Part shown: positions 39,150 through 64,000 of the stretch, one piece after another
Layout: every line of letters begins with the position of its first letter
Position numbering within the stretch: the stretch's first letter is position 1
Position numbers and translations under genes: made by a program
The notes under the pieces: generated by a model
Databases searched by the model: none
The model's input: only the letters and a program-made list of their open reading frames with translations
Told to the model about the DNA's origin: nothing
Origin: Cyanophora paradoxa CCMP329
Lineage: Eukaryota; Plantae; Glaucophyta
Length of the DNA stretch: 64,000 bases
Assembly: GCA_004431415.1 (NCBI GenBank)
Contig: QPMI01000472.1
Coordinates: forward strand, 1 to 64,000
Direction of reading: 5' to 3'

Positions 39150-39202
39150 ATTAAGGATCATTGGTAGATTTTTTATGTTGCAGTATAATAAAAGAGAATA
39201 TA

Positions 39203-40568: not shown

Positions 40569-40627
40569 ACCATATTCAGTCTCCCTGCATTATTTTTATC
40601 TGTCTTTATTTAGGAAGATCTACAACA

Positions 40628-41410: not shown

Positions 41411-41438
41411 AATTATCTCTCATTCTAATAAAGATACA

Positions 41439-42173: not shown

Positions 42174-42195
42174 TTATCTCTGTTTTATTAGAGAT

Positions 42196-42468: not shown

Positions 42469-42697
42469 TTTAATCGAGTTTACCAGTGATGAACCTGTTA
42501 CTGAGGGGTCTATAAGACACATTCTGGCAATGCAGAAACGATATAGAGATGACCCAGCCTATAGAGAGTATAAAAAGCAGCAAGCCTTGGCATCCTATTA
42601 TCGAAGAAAAGCCCAAAAAGAGGAGCAGAGACCCAGAGGGAGACCGATTAAATATTATTTGCCTACTGATAGTAGCAATGGACCCCCAGGTCTATAA
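42452..42697 (+). CDS. Small basic AT-hook protein
   Basis: QKRY..D..YRE..K..AL..YYRRK...RPRGRP. Confidence 0.65.
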   Translation: MEDTISLIEFTSDEPVTEGSIRHILAMQKRYRDDPAYREYKKQQALASYYRRKAQKEEQRPRGRPIKYYLPTDSSNGPPGL

Positions 42698-42849
42698 GAT
42701 AATCGAGAAAAAGCGGTCTCAGTATGCCACTGAGGCAGCTATAAAAGTTTACAGACAGGAACTGGTGTTCGCAACAAAAAATGACTTAAAGAAAAAGTAG
42801 ATAGGTTGTATTGAGGAAAAATTATTTTCGTATCTACTATTAAAGAGAA

Positions 42850-43176
42850 ATGCCGAATATCCGCAAGATACTCACAGATGATGAAAAAGCAGAGAAGCTG
42901 AGACTGAAAAGGGAGCAAGATGCCCAAAGAAAACGCGAAGCCTATCATAAAAAGAAGGAGGAACGATTATCCCAAGGAGCCGCTACAGTTCACACACCAG
43001 AAGAACTCAAAAAGATTGCCCTCAGACACCAGAGGAAATACAGGGAAAATGAAGAATATCGCGAGCAGAAAAAGGCAAAAGCGCTGGAATATTACCACAA
43101 GAAGAAAGATGAACAGCCCAAGAAACCCAAAGAGCATAAACCGGTTGGAAGACCTCGGAAATATATCGAAGAATAA
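42850..43176 (+). CDS. Small basic AT-hook protein, paralog
   Basis: YREQKKAKALEYYHKKK...KPVGRPRKY. Confidence 0.7.
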   Translation: MPNIRKILTDDEKAEKLRLKREQDAQRKREAYHKKKEERLSQGAATVHTPEELKKIALRHQRKYRENEEYREQKKAKALEYYHKKKDEQPKKPKEHKPVGRPRKYIEE

Positions 43177-43394
43177 ATTCTCGATCGAAACAAATTTTGT
43201 AGAAATCGATTTGATCGGAGGCAAAAAAATGACAGCTTTCTTCCCTCTTTTTTAAAACTGTACCTATATATCGAGACAGTATCCCGACCCAAAACTACTT
43301 AAGGACTTGGCAAATAATAGGATATATATAAAAGACAATTCCTCCTTCCGAAATTATTTTCTTTGTTAAAGGTAGAAGTCCCCCAAAATCGAAA

Positions 43395-45987: not shown

Positions 45988-46180
45988 GTTTACTCAAAAG
46001 TGGACTCATGGTTGACTCAAATTTATCATAAAAGACCCAAACAGTCTTTTATTTATGGTTTATTTATCGATTAGGTTGACTAAGTGGGGGGAGTTGACTC
46101 ATTTTTTCACAGATTCTAAAAAAGGACTCTGCCCTAAAAAGAAATAAAAAGTGCCTCAACTCCACCCACTAAGTCAACCA
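45988..46180. promoter_or_regulatory. Putative replication origin directly downstream of the helicase (GTTGACT / AT-rich / AGTCAAC)
   Basis: 46074-46180 resembles TIR segment 26341-26450 (GGTTGACTAAGTGGGGGGAGTTGAC...ACCCACT.AGTCAACC). Confidence 0.6.
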
Positions 46181-46230
46181 AAAAATGATTTAAGAGATAG
46201 AAAAATATATTTATATGTAAGTAGTAAGAA

Positions 46231-46581
46231 ATGGCTGGAACAGATCATGATTCTGGATCGATCTATATGATTGAGAGTCAGGAAATGAACAAAATCTACA
46301 TAGGGAGAACCTCACAGCCACTACACAAAAGATGGAGACAACACAAATCAGGTGAAATGAAATCCACAGCAGACCTATGCAAGGCTGCTGATGTCAAGTT
46401 TTCAGTCTTGTATTCAAGCAAGAATGGTGGGCATGAAGACCTAATGAACAGAGAAGCATATTACATGTATCTGTTTGAACCTTGGATAGTCAATTTACAA
46501 AAACCGAAATCAAGATTTAGAATTAATCGGTTTTTGCGATTCCATTCAGAGGAAGCCAATGGATCCATTAAAACATTTTAA
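46231..46581 (+). CDS. GIY-YIG endonuclease
   Basis: GSIY...IYIGRT...L..R..QH...RE..Y...VN. Confidence 0.85.
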   Translation: MAGTDHDSGSIYMIESQEMNKIYIGRTSQPLHKRWRQHKSGEMKSTADLCKAADVKFSVLYSSKNGGHEDLMNREAYYMYLFEPWIVNLQKPKSRFRINRFLRFHSEEANGSIKTF

Positions 46582-46642
46582 AAATGCGTTTAGAACATCC
46601 TAAAATAAAATATCCCCTTAGAATAGGAACAAGTTAGGAATA

Positions 46643-49600
46643 ATGCCCCGAATTACCAACAAACTCATAAGGGAGAAGAAATGGGAACTCATGGGATTGC
46701 TGGGAACACTATATGCAGCCCATGAAATAACAGAGGCTGAATATGACCGGGAAATAGATTTAATTGCAAAGGGTAGACCCACTTTAGCCAGATTAACCAG
46801 AAAAGCAAATAACCTATATGATAAAATTGAAACCTTGGATGAACTGGATCGCCTAAGGCAAATAGAACCTGAGGCAGAAGATGGAACAGCCATGAATGAA
46901 TTATATCGCTGGCTCACTTACAGAGCCAGAAGGGAAGTTGTTGTAGATGTGATTGAATTCCTGGACAGAATTGCTACATCCCTTCCTAATCGATTAAAGC
47001 AGGGTTTAGATCAATTCAGGGCAATCAAGGTTCGCTTGTCTTTTATCTGCAAGTTCGTAAAAGTAAGCAATCCGCAGGTTTGGATATCGAAATACATTTA
47101 CAGCGATTATTTTGTACTAACCAGATCGAGAAATATTCGAACTGAGCTGAATAAAGCAGCCCAAATATGCCAGGAGCAGATGAATGTGGTTGATAGCTAT
47201 CGCTTAGAAAGAATTGAAATACTCAGAGTGGCTATTATGAGTTATGCTCCAACTGGTGGATGCTTTCTACAAACCCCAGAGTGGATTGCTAGGAAGAGAG
47301 CCACAGTGAATATTCGAAATATTGATGATTCCTGCTTCGAAAATGCAATTTTGGCATATATTCACAGAAAAGCGATAAACTCCCATAAGAGGAATGAGCT
47401 TTCACAATATCGCAAATGGAAATACTCAGCAATCGCTTATAATCCGCTGGCTCTCAATTTCGACAATATCCCATTCCCTGTTGCCTGTGATGCTGAAATA
47501 ATTGATAAATTCGAGGCTCAAAATGCAGGCATTAGCATTAATATATTTGGAATCGATGGAGAGGTTATTTATCCCCTGCATCAATCAAGTAACCCAGGCA
47601 GAAAGCATAAGGTTAATCTCATGCTGATATTTGATGATGAAGGGAATGGTCACTATATTACAATCATGTCCCTTTCAAGGCTATTGAAAGTAAACCATGA
47701 AACATACAATGATCAGAAGTTACACTACTGTGACACATGCTTATCTCGATTCAGGTCTGAGGCTAAACTCACTGCTCATGTGGACTCAAACAGATGCATT
47801 GATTGGAGACTCTCAAAGGGAATCACACCTAAACCTGAAACCACCATAGAGTTTGGATTGAAAAACCTCAGGAAAACTGTCTGGCTTCCTGTTGTGGTCT
47901 ACTGCAAGATTGAACATAGAAGCATCCCCATTGATGCATCGAAATCTAAGAGGGAAGTTTCAGCAGTCAACCTTAGAATAGTCACTGGGGCAGATGTTCA
48001 AGATTTTCGATTTGAGGGGCAGGATCCAATGGGAGATCTGTTTGAATGCTTGGAATCCAAAGCAAGAGAGCTGATCGATTTCCTGTTTACCAATATTCCC
48101 ATGAATGAACTCACAGATGAGCAGAAAGCAATTTACAAGGCTACTAAACACTGTTACCTTTGCAGTGAGAGGTTCACCAAAGAGAACTTCAAATGCAGGG
48201 ATCATGATCATCACACAGGCAATTATATTGCTCCTGCATGCAGAAACTGCAATCTCCATAGGAGAATCTCAAAGCAAACCAAAGTTGCAGTGGTTGTTGA
48301 CCAAATGGATGACTGTGGGACATTCATTTTCAGAAAAATAGCAGGCATGGGTGATAAAAAGCGAATCGAAATCCTTTCGAAAAACTTTGATCAATACCTT
48401 TCATTGCAATGGGGTCTTTACAAGTTCATTGATGCAAGCAATTTCATGGATTTCGGAGCTGCTGATGTGACTGAGTTAATGAACAAATTCCAGGCTTTTA
48501 GAAGGCTTTCACACTCAGTATATGGACTTGACCCAGTTCATTATGTATCTGCACCTGGGCTATCTTGGGATGCTATGTTAAGGACCACCAAGGCAAAAAT
48601 AGAGCTTATAAGTGATGTAGAGCAATACGAATTTGTTGAGAGGGGAATCAGGGGTGGCTTTGCAACAATGCCTTGTAGGTATGCTGAGGCTGATGGTGAG
48701 AACTCCCATATTATGCTGTTTGATGCTAACAACTTGTATGGCTACTGTTTGAGTCAGCCAATCCCAGTTGGTGATTTTAGATGGGAGACCGAATTCAACC
48801 CACAAGATAACAGATCCAGTTTCCTAGAAGTTGATCTGGATTACCCAATTAGGCTGTTTCTAGATCACAGTGATTTTCCCCTAATTATTAACAAGAAAAT
48901 AGTAGAATATGCAGAATTATCACAATATCAAAAAAGCCTATTGGATCTCTCAGGAGAAGAGCTTGATAAAACCCCTAAGCTAACTGCAACCTTTGGTTCT
49001 GTGACCAACTATGTAGTTTCTGAGCCTCTTCTACAATACATGTTAGCTAAAGGTGTGAAACTAAAGAAGGTTCACAGGGTCCTATCATTTACTGTGGCTC
49101 CTGTAATGAAACCCTACATTGAGCTGAATACTGATATGAGAAGGAAAGCAGTGAATAAATTCGAGGCTGATTTCTATAAGCTCATGAATAATTCAATCTA
49201 TGGGAAATGCATTGAATCATGTAGAGGTCGATCTGTGGTTAAGATTGCCAACACTGAGAAGCTATTTATGAAATATGCAGCTTCCCCATTGGTGAAATCA
49301 ACAAGTCCCATAAGTGAAAGGGCAGTTGCCTTTGAGTTTTACACAAAACATGTGAAGCTAGATAAGCCTGTTGCTATTGGGGCTTATGTTTTGGATACTG
49401 CCAAACTGCATAACTACAAGTTCTTCTATGATACTGTAAGGTCCCAGTGGGCAAAAGCAAAGTTACTATTCCATGATACTGATTCCTTTTGTCTATATAT
49501 CGAATCTCAGACCCTCCAAAAAGACCTAGAGAATATATCCTTTAATCTGGACTTAGGGGGATCTAACAGAATGACCCCAGGTAAATACAAAAATGAGATG

Positions 49601-49888
49601 CCAGGTTCTGCTATATTGGAGTATGTAGGTCTGAGAGCCAAAGTTTACAGTTTCAGAACTGCTGAGATTGAGAGAAGTAAGCTATCTGGGACTTCCACTG
49701 AGGAACTCCAATTCAATGATTTTAAGGAGTGTTTATTTGCAGGTATCAGCAAGACTGTGACTGCAAAGCAGAAAAGAAGGGCAGATCACACAATAATAGA
49801 TACTGTGAGTAGAAGGGTTGCCCTAAACTGCTTTGATGCAAAGAGATACATCTTACCAGATGGTATTAATTCTGTTCCTTTTAATTAA
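46643..49888 (+). CDS. Protein-primed-type family B DNA polymerase, element C
   Basis: DANNLYG, KLMNNSIYGK, HDTDS, K.KNE, GLRAKVY; N-terminal OTU-like DDSCF...GHY and EndoVII-like C..C...RDHDH.TG....AC..CN. Confidence 0.93.
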   Translation: MPRITNKLIREKKWELMGLLGTLYAAHEITEAEYDREIDLIAKGRPTLARLTRKANNLYDKIETLDELDRLRQIEPEAEDGTAMNELYRWLTYRARREVVVDVIEFLDRIATSLPNRLKQGLDQFRAIKVRLSFICKFVKVSNPQVWISKYIYSDYFVLTRSRNIRTELNKAAQICQEQMNVVDSYRLERIEILRVAIMSYAPTGGCFLQTPEWIARKRATVNIRNIDDSCFENAILAYIHRKAINSHKRNELSQYRKWKYSAIAYNPLALNFDNIPFPVACDAEIIDKFEAQNAGISINIFGIDGEVIYPLHQSSNPGRKHKVNLMLIFDDEGNGHYITIMSLSRLLKVNHETYNDQKLHYCDTCLSRFRSEAKLTAHVDSNRCIDWRLSKGITPKPETTIEFGLKNLRKTVWLPVVVYCKIEHRSIPIDASKSKREVSAVNLRIVTGADVQDFRFEGQDPMGDLFECLESKARELIDFLFTNIPMNELTDEQKAIYKATKHCYLCSERFTKENFKCRDHDHHTGNYIAPACRNCNLHRRISKQTKVAVVVDQMDDCGTFIFRKIAGMGDKKRIEILSKNFDQYLSLQWGLYKFIDASNFMDFGAADVTELMNKFQAFRRLSHSVYGLDPVHYVSAPGLSWDAMLRTTKAKIELISDVEQYEFVERGIRGGFATMPCRYAEADGENSHIMLFDANNLYGYCLSQPIPVGDFRWETEFNPQDNRSSFLEVDLDYPIRLFLDHSDFPLIINKKIVEYAELSQYQKSLLDLSGEELDKTPKLTATFGSVTNYVVSEPLLQYMLAKGVKLKKVHRVLSFTVAPVMKPYIELNTDMRRKAVNKFEADFYKLMNNSIYGKCIESCRGRSVVKIANTEKLFMKYAASPLVKSTSPISERAVAFEFYTKHVKLDKPVAIGAYVLDTAKLHNYKFFYDTVRSQWAKAKLLFHDTDSFCLYIESQTLQKDLENISFNLDLGGSNRMTPGKYKNEMPGSAILEYVGLRAKVYSFRTAEIERSKLSGTSTEELQFNDFKECLFAGISKTVTAKQKRRADHTIIDTVSRRVALNCFDAKRYILPDGINSVPFN

Positions 49889-49891
49889 GAG

Positions 49892-51277
49892 ATGCCAGCA
49901 ACTGGAAGAATAGTAAGGAGAACCACTGAGCAACTGCAAGGTAACCTACTGCCTATCACAGTTCCAAAGGAGGAAAAAGGGGAATCTCGAATTGTCAAAA
50001 AGTCTGAGATGAAAGAGCTTGTCCCAGTAGAGATCCCAGTTGCTATTGCAGTGAAAGAAACTAGCAAGATTGCCAAGAGATTCTATGATGTGAGAACTGG
50101 TTACAAAGGGCTTCAAGCTATGAGGGCTGAGTTACCAGATGAATCCTATAAGCAGTTGCAAGAGTTCTATAAAAAGCAAGAGGTAGTTCAGATCAATGCA
50201 CCTGCTATATCTAGGAAGAGAGATCCCATGGTCCCAATAAGGCAACCCCTTGATACCTATGTGATTGATTTGCTCTTTTTCCCAGCTTATAAGAAACAAA
50301 ACAATGGCTATGATACCTTTATGACTGCAATGGAATCAACACTGAGAACTGGGTATATCATACCTATAAGGGATAAATCAGCTCTCACTACATTAGCTGC
50401 ATTTAAACAGCTTGAGATGAGAGTAGCAAGACCCATAGTAAAAGTTCAATCAGATGCTGGAAGTGAGTTCCAAAATCGAATATTCCAGGAGTATTTATCT
50501 AGTAAATACATAGAACACCAAGTGAGTGGAACTGCTGACCACAGAAGCCAAGGTCGAATTGAAGCCTTTAACAAACAGATTAAGAGATTGATTACAAACT
50601 ACTGCATAGCCAATAATACAGCTAGATTCTTTGATGTGTTAGGTGATATTGAGTATAATTACAATAATACAGTTCACTCAGCTACTAAGATGAAGCCAGG
50701 CGAAACTACAGAGGAGCATTATAGGTATATAGTGGGATTAGAAGATGAAAGATTCAAGAAATCAATAGCTTACCTTGATACCATGCAGCCTGGCATGTTT
50801 GTTAGAGTGAAAGTTGAGAAAAATCCCTTTGCTAAACAGGGTAACAATTGGTCTAGGATGGTTTACACTGTTGATAGTAGGGAAGGCTTTAAGTTTAAGC
50901 TAAGGAGTCCCACTGGTGAGATCATAGAAAACAGGTTTGCTTTCCATGAGCTGTTGCCTGTGAATGCAGTTGAATATCTAGAAACCCCTACAGTGGATGC
51001 CTTAGAGCAAGCCAAGGAGGAAGCCAGGGTTGATGCTGCTATAAGGAGAGAAGGCATAGAAGCTGCTAATGAAGTCCCAGATAAGCCTTTGATAGAGGCT
51101 AGAAAGGAGAAGGCTGGGAAAGTTAACAGGGAACTCAAAAAGCTCACTATAGCAGGGACACAGAAACTTTCTGAGGTTAATAGCCAGAGATGGTATAATG
51201 ACTTTCAGACTACTAAGGAGTCATATACAGCCCCTAAACCTCAGAGAACACTAAGAGAAAGGACCAAAACTAGCTAG
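49892..51277 (+). CDS. Retroviral-type (rve) DDE integrase, element C
   Basis: VIDL, SDAGSEF, IEAFNKQIK, YNNTVHSATKMKP. Confidence 0.93.
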   Translation: MPATGRIVRRTTEQLQGNLLPITVPKEEKGESRIVKKSEMKELVPVEIPVAIAVKETSKIAKRFYDVRTGYKGLQAMRAELPDESYKQLQEFYKKQEVVQINAPAISRKRDPMVPIRQPLDTYVIDLLFFPAYKKQNNGYDTFMTAMESTLRTGYIIPIRDKSALTTLAAFKQLEMRVARPIVKVQSDAGSEFQNRIFQEYLSSKYIEHQVSGTADHRSQGRIEAFNKQIKRLITNYCIANNTARFFDVLGDIEYNYNNTVHSATKMKPGETTEEHYRYIVGLEDERFKKSIAYLDTMQPGMFVRVKVEKNPFAKQGNNWSRMVYTVDSREGFKFKLRSPTGEIIENRFAFHELLPVNAVEYLETPTVDALEQAKEEARVDAAIRREGIEAANEVPDKPLIEARKEKAGKVNRELKKLTIAGTQKLSEVNSQRWYNDFQTTKESYTAPKPQRTLRERTKTS

Positions 51278-51533
51278 TTTGCTAGGCGAAAACTCGTTTT
51301 TTCCAAATATATGTATGACTGATATACATATATGCACATGATATACACATAGTCTTGTAGATCTTATCAAGCGCTTCACAGCGATATGCAGAACGTTGCG
51401 TTTTGATGATCTGGTGATGAGATATAACAGTTTGAAGATGCCGATTATCGATTTTTCAAAATTTCGGCGAGATTTCTAAAATGATGCATCATAATGATGT
51501 AATAATAATGATGCATCATAAACATATAATTAT

Positions 51534-51761
51534 GTCACCGGTGACTTTATTTGTCACCGATGACTTAATTTATTTGTGTGATTGTGTCACCAGTGACTTT
51601 AATTTGTCACAGGTGACTCTATTTTTTTTGTGATTGTGTCACCAGTGACTTAATTCCTTGTGTGATTTTGTCACCGGTGAGTTTAATTTGTCACCGATGA
51701 CTTTAATTTGTCACCGGTGAGTTTAATTTGTCACCGATGACTTTAATTTGTCACCGGTGAC
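51534..51761. repeat. Array of ten GTCACCGGTGAC-type palindromes
   Basis: Starts at 51534, 51553, 51586, 51606, 51638, 51670, 51690, 51710, 51730 and 51750. Confidence 0.9.
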
Positions 51762-52041
51762 TTATGATTATTATTATTAATATATATATATATACATAAC
51801 AACAATGACGACATCGCCGTCATCGTCATGATCTCCCGAGTCACATGGTGTGTCATATATATCATATACATACGTCAAATCATGATGACGTCATTGAATG
51901 AAACCCCATACAAAACACTAAAACGCATGTATCTCTTCACCAACTCATCATCTGACAAAAACAAAAACAGATTCGGAATCCTCTTAACGAGGCCTGCGTG
52001 ACGATGTAAGTATCATAGGCTCAATAATTCATTAATTTGTA

Positions 52042-52871
52042 AGCATCTGCCCTAGATTCCCCCTATTATATAATATTTATATTTAAGTGGACTCAAGGTT
52101 GACTCATATTAATCGTAAAAGTAGTAAAAGTATATGGATTTTGTTACGAATTCAATGCAAGGGTTGACTAAGTGGGTTGAGTTGACTCAAATTTCACAGG
52201 AAATATTTGGGACCAAAAGTTTTCTAAAAAGGATTTCACAAAATGTGTCAACTCCCCCCACTTAGTCAACCCTGACCATAAACAGTAAGGATTTGAGCTA
52301 ACATGTATCACAAAGTGAACATTTTGAGTCCACTTAGAAGATCCACTTTTGAAATCAAAGTTGATTTTGCTTGAAATTTCAAAGTTGATCTAAAAGTGAG
52401 TCCACCCTGATTGATTATGGTAACAAAGTTGACTAAGTTGACTAAGTTGAGTCATCTTAAGAAATTCAAGGAGACTAAGAGTTCAAAATGTTTATGAAAA
52501 GTGAGTCAACTTAGACCACTTATGGTAACAAAGTTAAATATTTAATTGATTTAATCGGAAAAGAACATGATTTAATCGAATTTATTGATATAATTCCGAT
52601 TAGATTCATTTAGAATTCAATTAAGATCAATCGAAGTTATTGATATAATTCCGATTAACTACAATTAAGATACAATATCGATTAATCGAGTTTATCGATA
52701 TAATATCGATTAAATTAATTGAAATTGCATATAAAAATATGAAAATTCATGTGAAAATTCAAATAAATTAATCGATTTTATTGATATAACATCGAATCAC
52801 ACATATGAATATTCATATTTTAATCCTGAGGCGGAACGCCGAGGGATTAAAATATGAATATTCATATGTGT
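52042..52871 (-). repeat. Right TIR of element C (hairpin 52799-52871)
   Basis: Reverse complement of 25741-26570. Confidence 0.96.
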
Positions 52872-52877
52872 ACACTT

Positions 52878-53908
52878 TCCATGTGCCTTCTGATTTCCTT
52901 GCTCATTTCCCTCTTATCTATTACAGTGAGGATCAACTCGCCAAGAAGAAGCGTTCAATGGGAATGGTTCATGGTATCCCTGCCCATGGAACCAACCGAC
53001 TTGGTGGGTCATTTTTCACTGAAATCCCAGTCCCATGGCTAAACCACTACCTACCTCTTGGTGCTCTCTCAGGAGAAATGGTGGTAACTGTCTGGTTCAA
53101 GGATGCTGGAAAGGGTTATGTTGAGACTTCTTATGGTGGTCGTGCTCTTCCTGTTGTTGGTGGAACAGCTGCTGATAAGACAGAGGATGATGGACTTGGT
53201 GCTACTGCTAATGCTACTCTTGCCCATGTTGGTCAACAAATCACCACTTTTGGAATTGGTGCAACAACAACCCCCGAAATTAAAGTCACTTCTCCTCGTC
53301 TTTACATGCATGCTATTAATGTTTCTGATGAACTGTTTGCTACTGTCATTGAGAAGGTGAAGACCACTGGTATGGCTATTCCTGCTCTGGATATTGGTTT
53401 TGTTGACAGTGTCAATTTTGCTGCAAAAGGCAATGCTCAACCAAATCGTATTAACCTGTCACAGATCTCTGGTCTTGTCTATGGTCTTCTTGTTTCAGTT
53501 CGTGATGCCGCAGGTATTGATGGTTTCAATGGTTCCCACAGTGTCCTAAAAACGCATGCTAACTCAAAAGACATTACTTTCACTGTTGAAATTAATGGTC
53601 AACGTCTCTATGCTACTGAGCCCATCCCTCTCCTCAAAGGTGCCGAATTAATTGCGGATGCCTTCAAGTGCTCAAATATGGACAAGGTTGCAGACAAATA
53701 TGTCCTCAGTGGTCTACCGTTCTGTGTTGATGGAGAGAAAGCGATTCGCAACATTGCCCAGTCTGGCTATGTTGATCTCACGAACTCCTCCTCCTCTTTC
53801 CTCACTCTATACATGCCTTCTGACCAGACAATCACTGTTAATGTTCGTGCTCTCATGCACAGTTTCATTATAGTCGATAAGGACGGCCTGAGGCGAATCA
53901 ATCTGTAA
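52878..53908 (+). pseudogene. Major capsid protein of element B, 3' part
   Basis: Resumes FHVPSDFLAHFP after the TSD and is colinear with the MCP of C. Confidence 0.88.
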
Positions 53909-53970: not shown

Positions 53971-54753
53971 ATGAACGATTTAGAAGAATTTGTTGCCTCT
54001 GAGATGATAACCCCACCATTTCGTGCTCTTTTCATAGGAAAGTCTGCAACAGGCAAGTCAGAATGTGTGAAATATTGGTTGAAACAGCTGCATGATGCGA
54101 AAAAGATTGATACTGTTCTTGTTGTGAGTGGGACGTCCTTCAATCATTTCTGGGATAAAGTAGCAACTTTGCAACTCGGGAAATGGGATGCTGCTTACAT
54201 TTCCAAACTACTGGATGAAAGGCAGGAGAAAATCGAAAAAGGGGAACCTGTCAATCACCTCTGTGTGGTCTTAGACGATTTAATAGACAACGAAATCATT
54301 GATTTGACCCGAGACAAAATCGTGGGATCTCTGTATTCCAGAGGTCGCCACTCGAAAATCTCGATTATCTGCATCACACAGAAGCTGAGGAAGGTTTCAT
54401 CAACAATTCGAGTAAATTCGGATTATGCTGTGTTCCTGAGTGCTGCTAATCGCAAAGAACTCGAAGCAATTGAAGAGGAGTACAATATCATGCGAAACAA
54501 GGACGATTTCTATAAGATGTTCGAGGAATATGTACACTCCTACCAATATATTGTGTGGTCTTCTGCAAATTATTCGGTGAACTATTATGTTGATAAAGCG
54601 GATCTGGTCAAAGATTTCCCATTTCCTCGGTTCCACAGGAAGCCCAAAAAGAAAGAAGATGAACTACCATCTCCACAGAAAGAGGAAGCACCCAAAGAGG
54701 TCAAGAGTGGTGTTCATTCAAACAAACTGATGCGATATAAGAGAGGATTGTAA
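53971..54753 (+). CDS. A32-like packaging ATPase, element B
   Basis: GKSATGKS, VVLDD, RGRH. Confidence 0.93.
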   Translation: MNDLEEFVASEMITPPFRALFIGKSATGKSECVKYWLKQLHDAKKIDTVLVVSGTSFNHFWDKVATLQLGKWDAAYISKLLDERQEKIEKGEPVNHLCVVLDDLIDNEIIDLTRDKIVGSLYSRGRHSKISIICITQKLRKVSSTIRVNSDYAVFLSAANRKELEAIEEEYNIMRNKDDFYKMFEEYVHSYQYIVWSSANYSVNYYVDKADLVKDFPFPRFHRKPKKKEDELPSPQKEEAPKEVKSGVHSNKLMRYKRGL

Positions 54754-54781
54754 AATAATCTCTGCTTCTTATAAATATACA

Positions 54782-55516
54782 ATGCCTTCGAAACGCAAAG
54801 TTGGCGTTCCTGCTGGTGCTATGTCATATTCTGCATCATCTGGAACCGGTTCTATTAACACAGAGCCCCTGAAATTCAATGGTGTCAATGAAGTGAAAGC
54901 ATCACAGCATCAGGAAGATCCCCTCAATGCTGCTTACGAAGAATCACCAGATGATAAAGCGCCCCAGGCATCCACCAGTGATCAATTGAATATTTCACCC
55001 GAAACCTCTAAGATGAAGGCAGTTGGTGAAGGTGCTCGTCGAATTATTGGTGCTGCTGATGACAAAGGATTGGGTCTGCAAGATCTCTCACTTGCCCGAA
55101 AAGGTGAAGGTGTCTCCAAGGAATCTGACAAGGTAATTCAATCCATGGCTGGCGAGGTCACCTACAAGGTCGCACCTACACAGAATATTCATCGAATTCC
55201 CAAAGCCCAATGGGACGAAATGACTGCGAAACTTAAAGATCTGGAAGCGAAATCCAGTGCACTTGAACAGTATGTCTCTGAGAAGAAAGAGAGAGCAAAA
55301 TTGAAGGAGATGCTGCGAAAGGAGGTGTACAGAATGGGAATTACTGGTCTCCCAGATAAGCAGTTCATTGGTAAGAAAGAAACTCAAATCGATGAGCAGG
55401 CAGTTGATGAGATGAAGACCAAAACCCAGAAGGGCACCATTGAACCTGGTGCTACCAAGGCAGAGGTTGATAAAGGTGTTGCCCCAACAGTATATAAACG
55501 ACGAGTTTGGCTATAA
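54782..55516 (+). CDS. Conserved charged coiled-coil protein, element B
   Basis: Ortholog of 41439-42173. Confidence 0.75.
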   Translation: MPSKRKVGVPAGAMSYSASSGTGSINTEPLKFNGVNEVKASQHQEDPLNAAYEESPDDKAPQASTSDQLNISPETSKMKAVGEGARRIIGAADDKGLGLQDLSLARKGEGVSKESDKVIQSMAGEVTYKVAPTQNIHRIPKAQWDEMTAKLKDLEAKSSALEQYVSEKKERAKLKEMLRKEVYRMGITGLPDKQFIGKKETQIDEQAVDEMKTKTQKGTIEPGATKAEVDKGVAPTVYKRRVWL

Positions 55517-55543
55517 TTATCTCGCTTTAAGAGAGAGAATATC

Positions 55544-55777
55544 ATGGATTTTCTGCGCAAAATCATTGAAATGTTTAATCTCCACATTGTGAGCAATTGT
55601 CACAGTGGTTGCTGTGACACCAAAGTCGAAATCGAGTTCTCAGACACTGAAAGCCATGGATCTGGTGGAAGGAGATTATCCACAGACTCGGTGGATTTCG
55701 AAGAGCATATTAAGACAGAGACAGTGAGGCGAAGGTCTGTATCTTTCACAGATCCGAAATTAAATCTCGGTAATTAA
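55544..55777 (+). CDS. Small CHSGCC protein, element B
   Basis: Ortholog of 42196-42468. Confidence 0.65.
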   Translation: MDFLRKIIEMFNLHIVSNCHSGCCDTKVEIEFSDTESHGSGGRRLSTDSVDFEEHIKTETVRRRSVSFTDPKLNLGN

Positions 55778-55978
55778 TATCGAATGCTCAGTCTCCCTGA
55801 GATCTATGCTATCCTGGACAGGAAATCCGCTGAATATGCAACAGAAGCCGCAATAAAAAAGCGTAGACAGGAACTGGTCTCGATCTGCAAAAAATGACAA
55901 GGGATTTAAGGGTAAGGTGTGTTTGATTGGTGAACCCGGACAAATTATTTTCTCGTCCAAATATAAGGAACATATCAA

Positions 55979-56206
55979 ATGGAAACTGAATCTGTGGTCG
56001 AATTCGAACTTGCAATGAGCGAAATGGATCCCAATGAGAGGAAAAGGTTGTATGACCGCTTGTACTTCCAGAAACGTTATCAAGATGAGGAGTTCCGTGA
56101 ATTATATCGTAAAAAGGCACTGGAACGATATTATCGCAGGAAAGCTGCTGAGATGGATCCCAATAATCCAGTAAAACGCCCAGTTGGTCGTCCCAGGAAA
56201 TACTGA
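55979..56206 (+). CDS. Small basic AT-hook protein, element B
   Basis: QKRYQDEEFRELYRKKALERYYRRK...RPVGRPRKY. Confidence 0.7.
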   Translation: METESVVEFELAMSEMDPNERKRLYDRLYFQKRYQDEEFRELYRKKALERYYRRKAAEMDPNNPVKRPVGRPRKY

Positions 56207-56393
56207 ACCGCCCCCAAAGTCCCAAATATCCGCTGAATCCTTTTTGTTACCATGATCGATCGACTTTTCGATGGATCATTACCATATATCGAGCGCCAAT
56301 CGGAAAACCCAAAGGTATTTAAAGGTTAGGCGCCAAAAAATGACAAGGATCCGGAGAAATTAATTTCTCCATTAAGTATAAGAAGACCCCAAG

Positions 56394-58784
56394 ATGTTCA
56401 ACTCTCAGCAACCGAACGGACTTAAAATCGCTCTCTTTGAGAAGGTGGATCGCTCCACTCTCAAATACCTGATTGATAATTTCGAGACTTTGGAGTATCG
56501 ACCTGATATTGATGCAACTGCTACTCTCACCCTTCTCCAACGTTATTTCAAGGATTTGAAGCGAGATGGGCGCATTGAAGTTAAATATCATCAATGCAAG
56601 CATAATACTGGTCGTTATTTCGTGAATCTTGAACACATCAAGAAGAAGCAAGCATCAATGCAAGGAATGCCCAGAGAATTCCGCCACACTCTTGCTCGCG
56701 ATTTCTACTACGATATCGATATGAAAAATGCGCATCCCACACTTCTCATTCAGTATTGTGAAAAAAATGAAATCGTTTGTGAGGGTCTCACTGATTATGT
56801 CGACAATCGTGATAGTATCATTGCTGATATAAGCAAGAAATCGGACTTTCTCGCGAAGATATCAAGAAAGCGTTTCTTTCTGTTGTAAACGGGGGTGGGG
56901 GCTCAATTGATAACAAGGAGCTGCTGAACCACCCCAAGTTCAAAGCAGTTAAGAACGAAATCACAGGAATTCACGCTCAAATTGCAAGCATGCCCGAAAA
57001 CCACAACTTCTTCTTGATTTGCAAGCGAAAGAAGGAGTATAACATCTTTGGTTCAACCATTAATATGGTTCTTTGCAAATTGGAGAATGAATGTCTGATT
57101 GCGCTTTGTCAGTATTTAACCTCACTTGCTGTGAAAGTCGGTGTTCTCGTTTATGACGGTTGTATGGTTGAAAAAGCCCTTGAATTACCCGAAACTCGTC
57201 TCCACAATATTCTCTGTGATGCTACCAAGTATATTGAGAATATCACTGGCTACAAGATTGAGTTGATGATTAAACCAATGGATCAAGGATTTACGATTCC
57301 AACAAATTCCAAAAGTGTATCCTCTCCTCTTAATATTGTTCGGGATGATCGTGAAGCTGCTCTCACATTTGTTAAATCGATTGAGGGGCGAGTGGTCATG
57401 TCTGATGGTCGTATATTCGCTCAGACAGACGATTTTCTGTGGACTGATGATTCCACAATGGTCTACAATATAATGTTGAAATTGTGCATGCAGTGCTTCA
57501 TGTTCAAGGAGGATGACAAAGGTAACTTGAAGCCATATTCTACCAATCTTACTGGGGCAGATCGAATTATCAAGACAGCCAAAGCATTTCTGCCCAATAA
57601 TCGTGTGTTCTACAATGATATTATGTGGTCATCGACCATTGGGAAATTGTGCTACCGAAATGGTGTGTATGATTTCGAGACAAAGAAGCTCACACCATGG
57701 GACAAATGTGACAAGATCTATTCTACCACTCGAATTGAGAGGGATCTTCTTGTTGACAAAGATGGATATGTGATCAAGCCATCTGATTCGGATATTCAAA
57801 CCCTTTTCGACAAGATTCTGGAACCCGTTTTCGGAACTGATTCGATTTCTTCTGCTCTGGAATTCACAGCTCGTGCAATGGCTGGGAAATACGAAGATAA
57901 ACAGTGGGGATTATCAATTGGTGAACGCAATTGTGGTAAGGGGTTTATGTGAATCTCAATGAAAATACCTGGGGAAGTGGATATGTGCACACCATCAGTG
58001 GGGAGGCATTCTTGCTGAATAAGAACTCAGATGACAACGATACCTCCAAGTTAAAGTGGATGAAACCTTGTGAATTTCGTCGTCTGACATTCACCCAAGA
58101 GATGAAATTCGATGTCTCAAACACAAATATTAAGGTGAATGGTGCAATGATCAAAAAGAAGGAATCTGGTGGTGATGTTCAATGCATGCGTGTTCTTTAT
58201 GAAAATGAGGTCAATATTCGCCTCCAAAGTCGTTTGTGGATGATCATGAATGATGTTCCACCCATTTCCCCATCTGATACCCTTCAAACCATGGTATTGT
58301 TCAAGCACCCCACAAATTCGTTGATCAAAAGACTGTTGAGGAAATGAACTCTCCTTGTGTGAGATTGGCTTCGGAAGATATCAAGAGTGTTCTGCTAAAA
58401 AGTCCTGAGATAATTAGAGCATTCGAATGGATGGTGTTTGAAGCCTACAAATCTCAGAAATTCGTGGTGTCTGGGAAGGTTGCTGAGGATATTAATGAAT
58501 TCCGGGAAGATGCAGGTGATGAAATGTCTCTGATCAGATCAGTGTTCGAATTCACTCGAAATTCATCCGATTCTGTAACTTCCAAGATGGTTGAGCAAGA
58601 GATCAAGCAACTGAGACTGAATATGTCTGCAAATCGCATTAAAACTGTGATGGGTTTGCTTGGAGCGAAATATGACAAGAATGCAGTTCGCAAGAAGGTT
58701 GGTACTGGTTATGATCGTGGCTACAAGGGTGTGAAGAAGATTGATAAGACACCTACTGTTGTTGAGTTTGATGATGATGAGTAA
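56394..58784 (+). CDS. TVpol (PolA-derived primase-polymerase) fused to D5-like SF3 helicase, element B (four ORFs, three frameshifts)
   Basis: GRYF...SMQGMPREFR...YYDIDMKNAHP (motif A), LENECL, LVYDG (motif C); NGVYDF, Walker A GERNCGKG. Confidence 0.8.
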
Positions 58785-58848
58785 AATACTTCTGTTATGA
58801 TTCTGATTTCTATATACATTCTTTTTATACCTTACTGGAAATGGACAG

Positions 58849-59042
58849 TAGGCACTTGAATAATCGAAGTAGGCACTTTTCAATTGAGGTTAGGCACTTT
58901 TAATTGACGTTAGGCACTTAGGCACCTTTCCTGGAAACTCTCTATAAAAATAAAATCAACGTTTTGAAAAACGCGACTTAACCTTTTTAAGACTTCTTTC
59001 TTACTCTCGATTCAAGAGTGCCTAACTGCCTACAAGTGCCTA
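58849..59042. promoter_or_regulatory. Putative replication origin downstream of the helicase (5x TAGGCAC, 92-bp AT-rich spacer, 3x inverted TGCCTA)
   Basis: TAGGCAC at 58849, 58870, 58891, 58911 and 58919; inverted copies at 59018, 59026 and 59036; inverted duplicate at 22740-22947. Confidence 0.65.
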
Positions 59043-59418
59043 CAAAAAATGATGCGATTTCAGAGATGGGATCCAAGAGCACCACAATGACCACATTCTC
59101 AAAAGAAGATTTCGCCCGACTCAATCATGAATGCTATGGATCTGATCCAGTTCTGACAGATGCAGAGCAAAGAAAAAAGTGCTTCGGTTGATCTTGGAGA
59201 AAGGAGGATGTAAATATGATCAGATGCCCAGGCATTTCAGAAAGAAATTAGATAGATACTGCGAAAATGGTAGAGGTCACCAGTGTGCAAATGATTTCGA
59301 GGAAATGAGAGCGGGGCAGGGTCGTCATGATGTGAACCATGCAAGAAAGCGACTTCAAGATAAACTTTCAAAACGCGTTCAAAACGCCCGAAAATAATAT
59401 GTTCCCTTAAAGTAAAAG

Positions 59419-62400
59419 ATGCCCCGCCAATCCAATAGAATCATCAAAGAGAAGAAAAACGAAATACTCGGTCTTTTAGGAACCCTTTTAGTCACTGGTG
59501 ATATTACAGAATTCGAATATGATCGCCAGGCAGCAATCTTGGATAGGAGACCAAGATTATCTCAACTCACAGAAATTACAAATCGACTGTATGATCGTTT
59601 TGAGAAAATGGAGGAATTCAGGGATGAAGGTTTAAGGTTGGGAGCGATTGCACCAGAGATTGAAGATGGGGAAGCAATGAACAAAGCATATTCTTGGTTG
59701 ACCTATCGAGCCAGAGGGGAGGTTATCCAAGATGGGATTGAATTCTTGGAGAGAATTGCACCCACTCTACCTCAGAGACTCAGACAGAAACTCCAAGACC
59801 TGCGAGCAATTAAAACTCGGTTGACCTTCATTTGTAAATTCACCAAAGTGAGTGATCAAAGGGTGTGGATCACCAAATTCATTTACAGTGATTACTTTGT
59901 CATCACAAGATCACGAAATATTGATGTTGAACTGCGAAATGCCCTTCAATCTATGCAGGAACAGATGATGCAGGTTGACAGTTACAGACTGGATCGCATT
60001 GAGATGCTGAGAGTGGTAATAATGTCTTATGCTCCTGTGGGTGGTTGCTTCTTCTCGACACCTGAGTGGATTGGATCAAAGAGAGCAACTGTGAATGTCA
60101 AGAATATTGATGGTCAAGACTGCTTCAAGTATGCAATCTTGGCTTACCTGCACCGAAATGATATTAATAAACACAAGAGCAATGAACCCAGCCAGTATAG
60201 AAGATGGTTAAACGAACTCGATTTCGAGGGCATCCAGTTTCCAGTTGCCTGTGATGCAGAGGTTATTGATCGATTTGAGGAGCAGAACCCTGAACTCTCA
60301 ATCAACATTTATGGTGCAGATAATCAAGCACAGTGTTTCTATCCTCTCCACCAATCCAGCAACCCCAGGAGAAAGACCAAGATTAACCTTTTATTAATCG
60401 AAAACGAAGAGGATGATAGAGGGCATTATATCACCATCATGTCTCTGAGTAGACTTCTGAAAACCACCTTTGATAAAGCCCATGATGGTCGCATTTATTA
60501 TTGTGAGACCTGTCTGTCTCGTTTCAGAACTCAGGAGAAGCTGGATGTACATATAGAAGCAAATCGCTGCATTGATTGGAGGGAAAGCAAAGGTAAATGT
60601 CCGAAATCTGGAAGTCACATTGCATTTGGGCTTCAACACCTTCGCAAAACTGTGTGGCTTCCCACTATCTGCTATGTGAAAATGGACAGTCACTCGGTTC
60701 CAATTGATGAGAACCGCAGTAAGAGAGAGGTTAAATCGGTTTCTCTAACAGTTGTGATGGGGGATGAGGTGATCTCTCATTATTTCGAGGGATCAGATCC
60801 ACTTGGTGCTCTGTTTACCACTCTCACAGAGATCAGACCCCAAGTAATCCGCACTCTATTCACCAATATTCCAATGCACCCACTCACAGAGGAGCAGAAA
60901 GCACAATACAAGATTACTAAACACTGTTATATCTGTGCTGAACGATTTACCCATGAGAATTTCCCAGTGAGAGACCATTGTCATCAATCAGGAGCATTTA
61001 TTGGGAAAGCATGCAGAAACTGCAATCTCCACAGGAGAATCTCGAAACAAACCAAGGTTGCAATAGTGGTGGATCACATGGATGAATGTGGACACGAAAT
61101 ATTCCGCAAAATTGCACAGCAAGATGATAAACTTCGTGTTGAGATTCTGAGCAAGAATTTCGATCAATACCTCTCTCTGCAATGGGGCATGTGGAAATTC
61201 ATAGATGCTTCGCACTTCATGGACTTCCAGGCAGTGGATTCTGGTGATCTTATGAGTAAATTCCAGACATTCCGAGAATTGGCGTTTACACAATATGGAT
61301 TGGATCCTGCCCATTATGTGAGCGCTCCTGGATTATCCTGGGATGCAATGCTCATTTATACCAGAGCAAAGATCGAGCAGATCAGTGATGTAGGGCAATA
61401 CGAATTCATTGAGAGAGCAATTCGAGGTGGGTTTGCTACAATGCCTACTCGATATGCAAAGGTGGAAAACCCAGATGACCATATAGTTCTCTTGGATGCA
61501 AATAATCTGTATGGTTTTGCTCTCAGTCAAGAACTGCCCAATGGCGATTTTCGATGGGAAGATGTCACAGAGGCACTTAAAGACACCTCTGGACGAAGTG
61601 CTTTCATTGAAGTTGACCTGGAATACCCACAAACTCTCACAGATCATTACGATTTTCCACTTGTAGTAAATAAAGAGCAAATCAGCACCGAAATGCTGGG
61701 TGAGTATCAACGAAAACTACTGGATATCACAGGTGAGAAGATAAGCAAAGACCCCAAACTCACAGCAACATTCTCACCCAAAAACAACTATGTGATCTCC
61801 CAACCTCTCTTGGTCTATCTTGTGAGCAAAGGTATTATAATTAAGAAGGTTCACAGGGTTCTCTCATTTGCAACCTCTGCATTCATGAAGAGTTATATTG
61901 ATCTAAATACGAAACTGAGGCGCCAATCTGTCACCAGATTCGAGTCTGACTTCTTTAAATTAACGAACAATGCAATCTATGGTAAATGCCTCGAATCATG
62001 CAGGGGTCGATCTGTGGTAAAGATTGCTAACAGTGAGAAACTCTGCAAGAAATATGCTGCAAGTCCATTGATCAAGGCAACCAATGTATTAAACGAAAAT
62101 GCTGTTGCCTTTGAGATGTACTCAAAGCATGTTCACTTAGATAAACCAGTAGCAATTGGTGCTTTTGTGCTGGATTTCGCCAAACTCCATAATAGCAGGT
62201 TCTTTTATGATGTGGTGAGGAGAACTTGGGAAACAGCAGAGCTGCTGTTCCATGATACAGATTCTTTCTGTCTACTGCTGCATACCAATGATCTAAATAA
62301 TGAGATGAAGCGAATTGCTGAACACCTGGATTGCAGTAATTATGATCCAGCCCACCCTCTCTTTGATAGGAGTAATCGCTTGATTCCAGGTAAATATAAA

Positions 62401-62700
62401 AACGAGTTCCCCCATGCAAAGATTGTGGAGTATGTAGGTCTGAGATCGAAACTCTATGCTTTCAGAACTGAGACCTTTGATAAAATAAAGATGTCTGGTA
62501 CTTCCTCAAAAGACGTTCACTTTGATGATTTCAAGAGATGCTTGTTTGAAGGCATCACCAAAACAGTAGCAGTAGTAAACAAGCGAAGACAAGACCACAA
62601 CCTATATGATTTGGAGAGCAGAAGGGTGGCTCTAAACCAACTCGATAGCAAAAGGAAGATATTAGACGATGGAATTCACAGCATTCCATTTGGGCTCTAA
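59419..62700 (+). CDS. Protein-primed-type family B DNA polymerase, element B
   Basis: DANNLYG, KLTNNAIYGK, HDTDS; same domain order as 46643-49888. Confidence 0.93.
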   Translation: MPRQSNRIIKEKKNEILGLLGTLLVTGDITEFEYDRQAAILDRRPRLSQLTEITNRLYDRFEKMEEFRDEGLRLGAIAPEIEDGEAMNKAYSWLTYRARGEVIQDGIEFLERIAPTLPQRLRQKLQDLRAIKTRLTFICKFTKVSDQRVWITKFIYSDYFVITRSRNIDVELRNALQSMQEQMMQVDSYRLDRIEMLRVVIMSYAPVGGCFFSTPEWIGSKRATVNVKNIDGQDCFKYAILAYLHRNDINKHKSNEPSQYRRWLNELDFEGIQFPVACDAEVIDRFEEQNPELSINIYGADNQAQCFYPLHQSSNPRRKTKINLLLIENEEDDRGHYITIMSLSRLLKTTFDKAHDGRIYYCETCLSRFRTQEKLDVHIEANRCIDWRESKGKCPKSGSHIAFGLQHLRKTVWLPTICYVKMDSHSVPIDENRSKREVKSVSLTVVMGDEVISHYFEGSDPLGALFTTLTEIRPQVIRTLFTNIPMHPLTEEQKAQYKITKHCYICAERFTHENFPVRDHCHQSGAFIGKACRNCNLHRRISKQTKVAIVVDHMDECGHEIFRKIAQQDDKLRVEILSKNFDQYLSLQWGMWKFIDASHFMDFQAVDSGDLMSKFQTFRELAFTQYGLDPAHYVSAPGLSWDAMLIYTRAKIEQISDVGQYEFIERAIRGGFATMPTRYAKVENPDDHIVLLDANNLYGFALSQELPNGDFRWEDVTEALKDTSGRSAFIEVDLEYPQTLTDHYDFPLVVNKEQISTEMLGEYQRKLLDITGEKISKDPKLTATFSPKNNYVISQPLLVYLVSKGIIIKKVHRVLSFATSAFMKSYIDLNTKLRRQSVTRFESDFFKLTNNAIYGKCLESCRGRSVVKIANSEKLCKKYAASPLIKATNVLNENAVAFEMYSKHVHLDKPVAIGAFVLDFAKLHNSRFFYDVVRRTWETAELLFHDTDSFCLLLHTNDLNNEMKRIAEHLDCSNYDPAHPLFDRSNRLIPGKYKNEFPHAKIVEYVGLRSKLYAFRTETFDKIKMSGTSSKDVHFDDFKRCLFEGITKTVAVVNKRRQDHNLYDLESRRVALNQLDSKRKILDDGIHSIPFGL

Positions 62701-62883
62701 TCTACTTCATTAATCTTTCTTTTTCTTTGGTTTCGCTTTCCAAGAAGTAATAAACCGCGAATTAAATGCAGCAGCCAAATACATCTTAATCCAGGGTCAT
62801 TGGGCTCGATTGCAAAATAGTTTGGAATTGTGTTCTCTTTCCACACAGACTCTTGCATTTATTATATGAGAGATAAGGTAAAG

Positions 62884-64000
62884 ATGCCTTCCACACAAAT
62901 AGGATTGAGACAACCACCAAGAATTGTGAGAAAAGAGGCAATTGAAGATCGAGGGAATATCCTACCTATCACAGTTCCAGTGGAAGAGAAAAGCAGTCGA
63001 ATATTGAAAAGATCAGAGATGGTCAAGCAATTAATCCCAGAGACCCTCCCAGCTGAGACAGCACCAAAAGAGTCGAAGATTGCTAAGAAGTTCTATGATC
63101 CCAGGACAGGCTACAAGGGATTCACAGCAATGAGACAGGAACTACCAGAAGAGAACTACAAGAAGATGAGAGAATGGTATGATAAACAGGAGGTTGTCCA
63201 AATTAATGCACCAACTCTATCTCGAAAGAGAGATCCCATGATTCCAATTAGGCAACCCCTTGATACCTATGTGATTGATCTGCTCTTCTTTCCTGCATAC
63301 AAAAAGCAGAATGATGGTTATGATACATTTATGAGTGCAATGGAATCAACCCTGAGAACAGGGTTCATAATTCCAATGAGAGACAAGAGTGCTCTTACTA
63401 CTCTTGCAGCATTCAAGCAACTTGAACAAAGAGTCCCCAGACCGATTGTTCGCATTCAGAGTGATAGTGGAAGCGAATTTACCAATGTGCTATTCACAGA
63501 TTATTTGGGAACCAAATTCATAGAGCATCAACTAAGTGATGTTGCAGATCACAGAACCCAAGGTCGAATTGAAGCCTTTAACAGACAGATCAAAAGATTG
63601 ATCACAAACTACTGCATTGCAAATAATACTGCACGATTTTTTGATGTGTTGGGTGATATTGAGTATAATTATAATAATACCATTCACTCTGCAACCAAGA
63701 GAAAACCAGCAGAGACCACAGAAGCCCACTACAAAGAGATTGTGAATATGGAGGATCAGAGATTCAAGAAATCGATCGAATATCTTGATGCCCTGAAACC
63801 TGGAATGTTTGTGAGAGTAAAAGTTGAAAAGAATCCATTTGCAAAGCAGGGTGTTAATTGGTCTCGAATTGTTTATAGTGTGGAGGGCAGAGAGGGCTTC
63901 AAGTTCAGAATCAGAAGTCCAAGTGGTGAGATAGTTGATGGTAGATTCGCTTTTCATGAACTGCTGCCCATCAAAGGTGTTGAGTATCATGAAACTCCCA
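62884..64000 (+). CDS. rve integrase, element B (runs off the window, absent from the ORF track)
   Basis: ATG 62884, MPSTQIGLRQPP...PIRQPLDTYVIDLLFFP...SDSGSEF...IEAFNRQIK. Confidence 0.9.
   Translation, partial: MPSTQIGLRQPPRIVRKEAIEDRGNILPITVPVEEKSSRILKRSEMVKQLIPETLPAETAPKESKIAKKFYDPRTGYKGFTAMRQELPEENYKKMREWYDKQEVVQINAPTLSRKRDPMIPIRQPLDTYVIDLLFFPAYKKQNDGYDTFMSAMESTLRTGFIIPMRDKSALTTLAAFKQLEQRVPRPIVRIQSDSGSEFTNVLFTDYLGTKFIEHQLSDVADHRTQGRIEAFNRQIKRLITNYCIANNTARFFDVLGDIEYNYNNTIHSATKRKPAETTEAHYKEIVNMEDQRFKKSIEYLDALKPGMFVRVKVEKNPFAKQGVNWSRIVYSVEGREGFKFRIRSPSGEIVDGRFAFHELLPIKGVEYHETP

Follow-up and report, generated by a model that had tools for sequence, protein, structure and literature searches.

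The unit exchanged between two related viral elements in the stretch of DNA analysed here (64,000 nt, hereafter the window) is probably a self-loading initiator, a primase-helicase, together with a candidate for its cognate replication origin, as judged from sequence comparison and from analogy with the SaPIs. Elements B and C carry unrelated genes in the same slot, and directly behind each of these genes lies a block of ~200 nt with short facing repeats around an AT-rich spacer. Recurrence of the block is limited to the termini of its own element, with TAGGCAC repeats in B and GTTGACT repeats in C. Each slot helicase would act on its own block as the replication start site, and the wing of its C-terminal domain would read the iterons, as in PriRep5 of SaPI5. 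With specificity residing in the wing, primase domains would be interchangeable, and the helicase end and the origin, terminal copies included, would have to move or change together.

Elements of the window

Three AT-rich elements (A, B and C) are set in GC-rich (~64%) host-like DNA in the window. The right end of A is at 7616, B starts at 21958 and continues past the window edge, its right end lying outside, and C is a complete Polinton-like virus (PLV) of 27.1 kb (25741..52871) nested inside the MCP gene of B. The insertion of C is flanked by a 6-bp target duplication, with the second copy at 52872-52877, and its perfect 831-nt TIRs (25741-26570 and 52042-52871) end in hairpins. The preliminary description had presented B and C as a pair of close relatives, and relatives they are, but C sits inside the MCP gene of B and not alongside B. 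On the forward strand, this gene is left as an N-terminal part (25398..25740) and a C-terminal part (52872..53908), and B could be packaged only with a capsid given in trans. The sole MCP homologue found for B and C is P0199, a Cyanophora paradoxa record with 57% identity that is the nearest to the C-terminal part of B; its own nearest Atlas clusters carry Capsid_N/Capsid_NCLDV on 12-18% of their members (score 0.98, low recognition). This match hints that the host is a protist.

Further along the forward strand, B has an A32 ATPase, a coiled-coil gene and three small ORFs (53971..56207), all common to C and forming the left border of the swapped slot. Beyond the slot are the protein-primed PolB (pPolB; 59419..62700, motifs read by eye) and an rve integrase that runs off the window (62881..64000; Pfam rve E 0.0014, 76% identical to that of C). 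The pPolB and rve integrase of C occupy 46643..51277 on the same strand, pPolB being 46643-49888, and the slot of C also holds a forward-strand GIY-YIG nuclease (46231..46581, Pfam E 3e-11) that is absent from the slot of B. Matches to Pox_A32 (E 2e-11/3e-12), to DNA_pol_B_2 in C (8e-13, reaching the pPolB of B through 62% identity) and to rve (E 1e-3/1e-4 in B/C, below the curated cut-off) place B and C as related Polinton-like viruses of the rve/pPolB type within Polisuviricotina. No protease family match that would indicate an adenain-type maturation protease was found among 42 ORFs scanned. Close relatives of B and C were absent from scans of viral contigs with the ATPase, P0199 and pPolB, and a metagenome scan gave one 1.4-kb contig.

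Both pPolBs keep the vOTU Cys/His residues, the polymerase motifs and an endonuclease-VII-like zinc finger, with the domain order taken from PMC11161782. Reading the motifs by eye, we recognised no exonuclease motifs in B or C, and the polymerase of mavirus is likewise reported without recognisable ones. All three visible kinds of element end are imperfect hairpins of 73-96 nt (z about -12 to -14), located at 21958..22053 for the left end of B (z -11.7), at 7544-7616 for A, and at 25741-25813 and 52799-52871 for C. Each has a loop of 3 nt with mismatches close to the tip, and the layout of the tip is common to A and C.

Several other features were observed in the window. Small basic ORFs with GRPRKY-like ends, which we take to be AT-hook-like motifs, precede the slot in both elements (55544-56207 in B, 42196-43176 in C). 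Where C has its GIY-YIG gene, B has a small, apparently frame-broken ORF with Cys/His residues (59066-59400). In the region 26807-37189, C encodes an AdoMet decarboxylase and a patatin joined to an F5/8 domain, and its fibre genes there contain a 36-nt repeat and an S74 chaperone. This group of genes is missing from B in the part seen. Repeat arrays containing GTCAC occur near the left end of B (22416-22737) and between the integrase and right TIR of C (51527-51768), those of C being palindromes with a 20-nt period, and may be sites for a protein common to the two elements, for example the integrase. In the GC-rich DNA, where 31 ORFs gave no useful Pfam match, a 57-nt inverted repeat (86%; 8744-8800 and 14642-14698) perhaps marks the ends of a host transposon of ~6 kb. 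A scan for bacterial promoters and terminators gave results at chance level.

Unrelated primase-helicases in one slot

The proposal that B and C hold unrelated genes in the same slot is confirmed by our comparison. The order MCP, ATPase, coiled-coil, three small ORFs, pPolB, integrase is common to both elements, and amino acid identity is 95/88% for the MCP, 90% for the ATPase, 87% for the coiled-coil protein, 76% for the integrase and 62% for pPolB, the last two being colinear as described previously. The slot genes do not align, with scores at shuffle level; similarity ends at ~56200 in B and ~43170 in C and resumes at ~59366 and ~46577. The MCP, ATPase and coiled-coil proteins had been called nearly identical, which does not extend to the DNA: core DNA is 65-79% identical and fourfold-degenerate sites 36-66%, so that at the nucleotide level the split between B and C is old.

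The slot gene of B (56394-58784) is read in four overlapping frames with three frame breaks, and these frames are one gene. Its first piece (56394..56888, forward strand, as are the other three) holds the N-terminal half of TVpol, a PolA-like domain, with motif A (TVpol profile E 2e-48; residues 8-137 of the homologue P0001). The second (56828..57952) comprises the rest of TVpol with motif C, a collar and the D5-type helicase up to Walker A (profile A1 140-494, E 3e-108, and the fold of the homologue), the third (57940..58347) the SF3 ATPase core with Walker B and motif C (profile A1 493-616; PHROG 1156 E 3e-6), and the fourth (58278..58784) the C-terminal region with a predicted winged-helix domain (C-terminal profile E 4e-24). 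Sequence searches of Pfam, PHROGs and PDB returned nothing for the first piece. P0001 (767 aa) spans all four pieces in order, as do 46 of 150 further homologues, with at least three pieces matched in 127 of the 150, and the pieces tile one 765-position family profile in order. Separate genes were rejected on these grounds, the pieces also matching family profiles. The frame breaks would fit long-read consensus errors, since single-base indels at runs of 3-5 bases are also seen at several places in coding DNA when B and C are compared outside the slot, and the TIRs of C are perfect. Cleanly aligned core genes of B and C contain no stop codons, and the four stops found elsewhere come from alignments spanning a break.

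The motifs DIDMKNAHP and YDG, named in the preliminary description, are located in pieces 1-2 of B, and its assignment of TVpol joined to an SF3 helicase agrees with the profile match and with a structural model. This AlphaFold model (106 sequences, pLDDT 94) gives the fold of P0001, which is ~32-42% identical to B, and not of B itself. Residues 1-284 resemble PolA enzymes (Klenow Z 14.5, rmsd 4.0, 265 aligned; Pol theta 14.4; T7 12.3), and residues 295-764 resemble poxvirus D5 (Z 28.7) and SaPI5 PriRep5 (Z 24.5, rmsd 4.0, 394 aligned), the alignments to both extending through residue 751-764. As modelled, the family of the B slot gene combines a PolA fold with a D5/C962R-type SF3 helicase, and the P0001 model places a winged helix at the C-terminus. 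Primase/polymerase activity of TVpol is a prediction tabulated in PMC3671162, in the portion of that source available.

The slot gene of C reads, from its sequence, as an AEP-like domain followed by PriCT-2 and an NrS-1/DUF5906-type helicase, AEP being the weaker call. Pieces 1-2 (43395..44143, forward strand) are assigned to Atlas AEP_C962R (0.95, 10/10 best family matches), and the previously named DLD and SAH motifs are present in piece 1, in that order. The local profile match is weak (E 0.027), so the AEP call is made by language-model features and motifs, and Pfam, PHROGs and PDB sequence searches gave nothing for these pieces. A single-sequence model of piece 1 was discarded (pLDDT 60, all helix). 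Piece 3 (44119..45987, forward strand) contains PriCT-2 (Pfam PriCT_2 5e-9), an NrS-1/DUF5906-type SF3 helicase (DUF5906 4e-21; 6K9C E 2e-32) and a predicted winged-helix end. The earlier assignment of AEP-PriCT2-SF3H is thus firm for its second and third domains and less so for the first. Pox_D5 matches to the winged helix of the C family were found in 6 of 20 C-termini (E up to 0.016), along with RFX5 (E 0.028); the Sputnik-like group and C itself had no Pox_D5 match, and both were placed by alignment to Pox_D5-positive C-termini.

All four combinations of primase and helicase types exist among the homologues (P0001, P0002, P0005 and P0054). A non-orthologous replacement covering both the primase and the helicase domains is supported; one common fold for the two N-terminal domains was rejected, given the PolA fold in the family of B and the lack of alignment between the slot genes.

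The B gene had also been described as richer in CpG than the replication genes of C, which holds (observed/expected 0.76 versus 0.27-0.30, p 6e-7), and as perhaps a recent acquisition on that basis, which is not established. Although the slot gene is above the rest of B (p 9e-5), it is equalled by the ATPase gene of B (0.74, p 1.0), and taken as a whole B is richer in CpG than C. CpG content therefore does not date the slot gene, and we rejected it as a clock.

Facing repeats and the helicase wing

The blocks behind the slot genes consist of short repeats, a spacer and then inverted repeats. The candidate origin of B (58831..59051, forward strand) has five TAGGCAC copies, a spacer of ~92 nt and three inverted copies (p 0.002 against shuffles), and is 86% identical over 223 nt to a subterminal copy near the left end, which is inverted relative to it (22744..22965, reverse strand). 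An ORF with a weak DUF5710 match (22916-23395, E 0.002) adjoins this left block. The candidate origin of C, with GTTGACT-type units, is at 45998..46179 on the forward strand (p 0.052 in the shuffle test), and a block in the left TIR at 26341..26527 on the reverse strand (p 0.008), with its mirror copy at 52085-52271, is 69% identical to it over 191 nt (E 7e-9). The block of B is clear and that of C is degenerate, a strict detector missing both the internal and the TIR blocks of C. At the right end of A (6347..7616), a facing-repeat block of GGGTGGGG type occurs in three copies, along with the terminal hairpin; this block is weakly related to that of C (z 12 to the TIR block). Spacer AT content is 68-72% in B and A compared with ~59% in the genes of B.

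The repeats are specific for their element. TAGGCA[CG] is found 14 times in B, all in the two blocks, and four times, scattered, in the 27 kb of C. GT[TG]GACT[AC]A is found 25 times in C, with 20 copies in the TIRs (ten each) and four after the helicase, and not at all in B, A or the host DNA. The blocks of B and C do not align with each other (z at most 3.4) but do so with the terminus of their own element (z 76 and 23, respectively), even though the outer termini and the sequence upstream of pPolB are still alignable between the elements. Since silent sites are close to saturated between B and C, drift could account for the difference between the blocks.

The same layout is present in other viral loci. 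For the B family the sample was the best 80 of 377 loci, and for the C family it was the best 80 of at least 536. The helicase end was complete in 152 loci, which form 69 clusters at 70% identity, 68 of them with 300 nt downstream. By a shuffle-based test, designed after viewing the window and 12 of these loci, an array lies behind the helicase stop in 26 of the 68 dereplicated loci, compared with 19 of 635 other gene ends, and is absent at the other 42. Both families contribute, with 10/31 helicase ends versus 7/288 other ORF ends in the B family (p 2e-7) and 16/37 versus 12/347 in the C family (p 3e-11). Restricting the comparison to gaps of at least 150 nt gave 10/24 versus 5/104 and 14/32 versus 6/134, respectively. 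A stricter detector, designed after the shuffle-test result and so not independent of it, with convergent genes sharing the helicase gap excluded, found arrays at 25/68 helicase ends, 11/619 others and 2/57 positions upstream of helicase starts. The arms are 9-nt-periodic direct repeats around a spacer of 54-150 nt, and 48 of 101 repeat intervals are 9 nt.

A remote second copy of the array, sought on contigs that are partial, was modestly enriched in B-type loci (6/31 versus 18/291) and not in C-type loci (3/37 versus 25/348), and a loose test (at least 40 nt) did not discriminate (35/73 versus 221/585). The array layout occurs in virophages, PLVs and phages. When 180 ORFs of 190-900 aa were scanned in the 28 loci at p <=0.02, virophage capsid markers were found in five, an A32 ATPase in ten, Capsid_N in one and tailed-phage markers in four; one more lies in a 720-kb contig and seven had no marker assignment. 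L142, L148, L151 and L158 are tailed phages that have NrS-1-type helicases and the same array layout downstream of them, the GC-rich ones having no AT-rich spacer. L131 had no match among phage records. Facing arrays with a 7-9-nt period were also seen away from the helicase end in L130 (five or more), L009, L043, L047, L084:557 and L150, so that in some elements the array is present more than once or at another site.

Repeat sequence in the Sputnik-like group tracks, in the sequences compared, the wing of the helicase C-terminal domain and not the primase or the ATPase. This cluster of 15 loci and 11 distinct proteins (L119 carries V18/19 at E 2e-271) uses the NrS-1-type helicase clade and has three wing sequences, each with a distinct repeat type. 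The YKAHGT wing is accompanied by GGGGGAC repeats in 5/5 proteins and these repeats occur with 0/6 of the others (Fisher p 0.002, the sequences not being independent), and ATPase lineage is not associated with repeat type among the 11 proteins. In the pairs L127/L128 and L119/L126, proteins 98-99% identical outside the C-terminus differ in the wing and in both repeat arms, and L071/L075 follow the same pattern. There are exceptions: L088 and L090 have similar wings and different repeats, and L093 has the repeat of L088 with a different wing. Wing and block are ~150 nt apart, so linkage accounts for part of the co-variation. It is not a full explanation in its simple form, since the arms both change with the wing and the spacer with the ATPase lineage. 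Comparison with the PriRep5-ori structure came after the 9-nt period and the wing pattern had been found.

Replication start and known systems

If the blocks are origins, the shared, proofreading-less pPolB may extend primers made by the primase and complete the hairpin-capped ends, in place of all-protein-primed starts; this is the least certain step of our reading, and we put it somewhat below an even chance. The non-canonical initiation suggested earlier for a primase beside a protein-primed polymerase gains support, but from repeat blocks and hairpin ends that the suggestion did not draw on. We give nearly even chances to a wider proposal, in which virophages and PLVs with SF3 primase-helicases would start replication at SaPI-type iteron origins behind the helicase gene, and the short wing hairpin would be a fast-evolving origin code that separates co-infecting or nested replicons. 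In B and C such an origin would drive an exonuclease-less pPolB on a hairpin-ended genome, with protein priming no longer the main start.

Alternatively, the primase-helicase and its block could be a selfish passenger, a homing or transposing cassette, in an element copied by ordinary pPolB protein priming from its ends. The terminal-protein region, vOTU Cys/His residues and polymerase motifs of pPolB are under selection (62% amino acid identity at 37% fourfold-site identity), a GIY-YIG nuclease lies inside the slot of C, and cassette mobility of this kind is proposed in the available text of Barth et al. We nevertheless regard a passenger as unlikely: the ends follow the helicase, since both TIRs of C, with ten motif copies each, and the left end of B contain a matching block, and arrays elsewhere occur without a pPolB match, the DNA around 160 loci giving two weak 55-aa matches.

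Less probable again is that the internal block has no function and is a scar, left by duplication of part of a terminus when a pPolB-integrase or helicase module joined the element. The internal and right-TIR blocks of C are direct repeats that bracket GIY-YIG, pPolB and integrase, and comparable brackets in Gezel-14T and other polisuviruses are reported in the accessible parts of bioRxiv 10.64898/2026.10.13.758929 and PMC11296320. However, alignment of the two copies in C shows that the repeat units are kept and the spacers differ. The array moreover changes with the wing, and it is found directly behind helicases that have 6-10 kb more DNA after them, as well as in tailed phages.

We find it improbable, more so than a scar, that the repeats are recognition sites of the primase domain, templates for de novo priming such as phage NrS-1 reportedly has, and not winged-helix sites. 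Primase and repeats do both differ between B and C, and facing sites would prime two leading strands, but the repeats differ between proteins with 98-99% identical N-terminal domains, and GTATAGT-type repeats are common to five loci for which the N-terminal domains compared show only 21-31% identity. An RNA hairpin of the giant-virus type, which ends or processes mRNA, is the least probable reading of all, for although each block lies 3' of a stop codon and folds better than shuffles (z -3.1 and -5.6), such arrays are rare behind other genes of the same loci (11/619), recur in non-coding termini, have arms of 9-nt-periodic direct repeats around a 54-150-nt spacer, and a hairpin would have no need to follow the wing sequence of a protein.

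Turnover between PolA and AEP is already in print, as are primase/helicase replacement and the presence of pPolB together with a primase-helicase (Hackl 2021; Yutin 2013; the Halocafeteria preprint), so the swap between B and C is a new instance of a known process and, by itself, ordinary. As far as the available text goes, Barth, Ha and Aylward (bioRxiv 10.64898/2026.10.13.758929) describe a contig with two syntenic morphogenetic modules (70-78% nucleotide identity, PolA versus AEP), two SF3 clades shuffled with both primase types, multi-replicase elements, and repeats that bracket replication modules with nucleases nearby, and their Figure 6 labels small repeat arrays. In contrast to those elements, B and C have both retained pPolB and rve integrase as orthologues, C is nested in B, and their repeats resolve into helicase-specific facing iterons; iterons and wing specificity are not described in that text, to the extent available. 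The 'replicative end module' of PLVs (Barth 2024, PMC11296320, in the part accessible) is a hypothesis in which inverted repeats beside the primase-helicase are its origin and ends and replicase are replaced together, with a TIR-derived direct repeat behind the Gezel-14T module. It is framed at the level of whole repeats in tyrosine-recombinase elements, to which B and C, of the rve/pPolB type, add fine structure, an enrichment test and a specificity determinant. New terminal repeats would accompany replicase swaps because helicase end and origin must stay matched.

According to the portions available of PMC3671162 and PMC12220804, the TVpol-S3H of Sputnik V13, OLV25 and cryptophyte PLVs is a PolA-fold and SF3 helicase fusion in which helicase domains were displaced repeatedly; unlike it, B pairs TVpol with the D5-type clade, alongside pPolB and rve integrase. 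Endogenous virophages and PLVs of Cafeteria and Halocafeteria, as described in the accessible parts of PMC8547959 and bioRxiv 10.64898/2026.07.28.741278, show non-homologous primase/helicase replacement, pPolB with a primase-helicase, nesting and terminal palindromes, and are, like B and C, AT-rich elements within a GC-rich host. The capsid lineage of B and C is different, their nearest MCP being the Cyanophora paradoxa record, and those papers propose, in the same parts, hairpin priming or transient replacement states rather than an iteron origin. No paper describing iterons or origins in virophages or polintons was found in our search, most subscription papers, figures and bioRxiv supplements lying outside it. 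Linked helicase-specific origin candidates and a putative wing code may thus be new, and figures and bioRxiv supplements may bear on this. They provide exact candidate origins for the replication start of virophages and PLVs, a candidate specificity determinant in a wing of ~10 residues, and natural allele pairs that differ in little else, the Sputnik-like virophage group among them.

The closest parallel is with the SaPIs, and it would tie eukaryotic viral satellites to SaPI rep-ori logic. In the accessible text of PMC9371898, SaPI origins lie directly behind rep and have 6-12 facing iterons, to which the C-terminal winged helix binds, on the two sides of an AT-rich centre, and related SaPIs carry unrelated Reps in the same slot. 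The PriRep5-ori structure (bioRxiv 10.64898/2026.10.17.759575, as available) has the wing in the major groove and 7-nt iterons 2 nt apart around a 102-bp AT-rich centre. B and C share with SaPI5 PriRep5 the primase-SF3 helicase fusion, a predicted C-terminal winged helix, facing iterons directly behind the gene with an AT-rich centre of ~100 bp between them, and the 7+2-nt spacing. A SaPI, as these sources present it, is a bacterial satellite with one ori that uses the host polymerase and has been shown experimentally, whereas B and C, known from sequence alone, are eukaryotic linear elements with extra terminal copies of the block, hairpin ends and their own pPolB. B and C have the gene set of eukaryotic PLVs and, by this analogy, would be SaPI-like in their working, without being staphylococcal phage-inducible islands.
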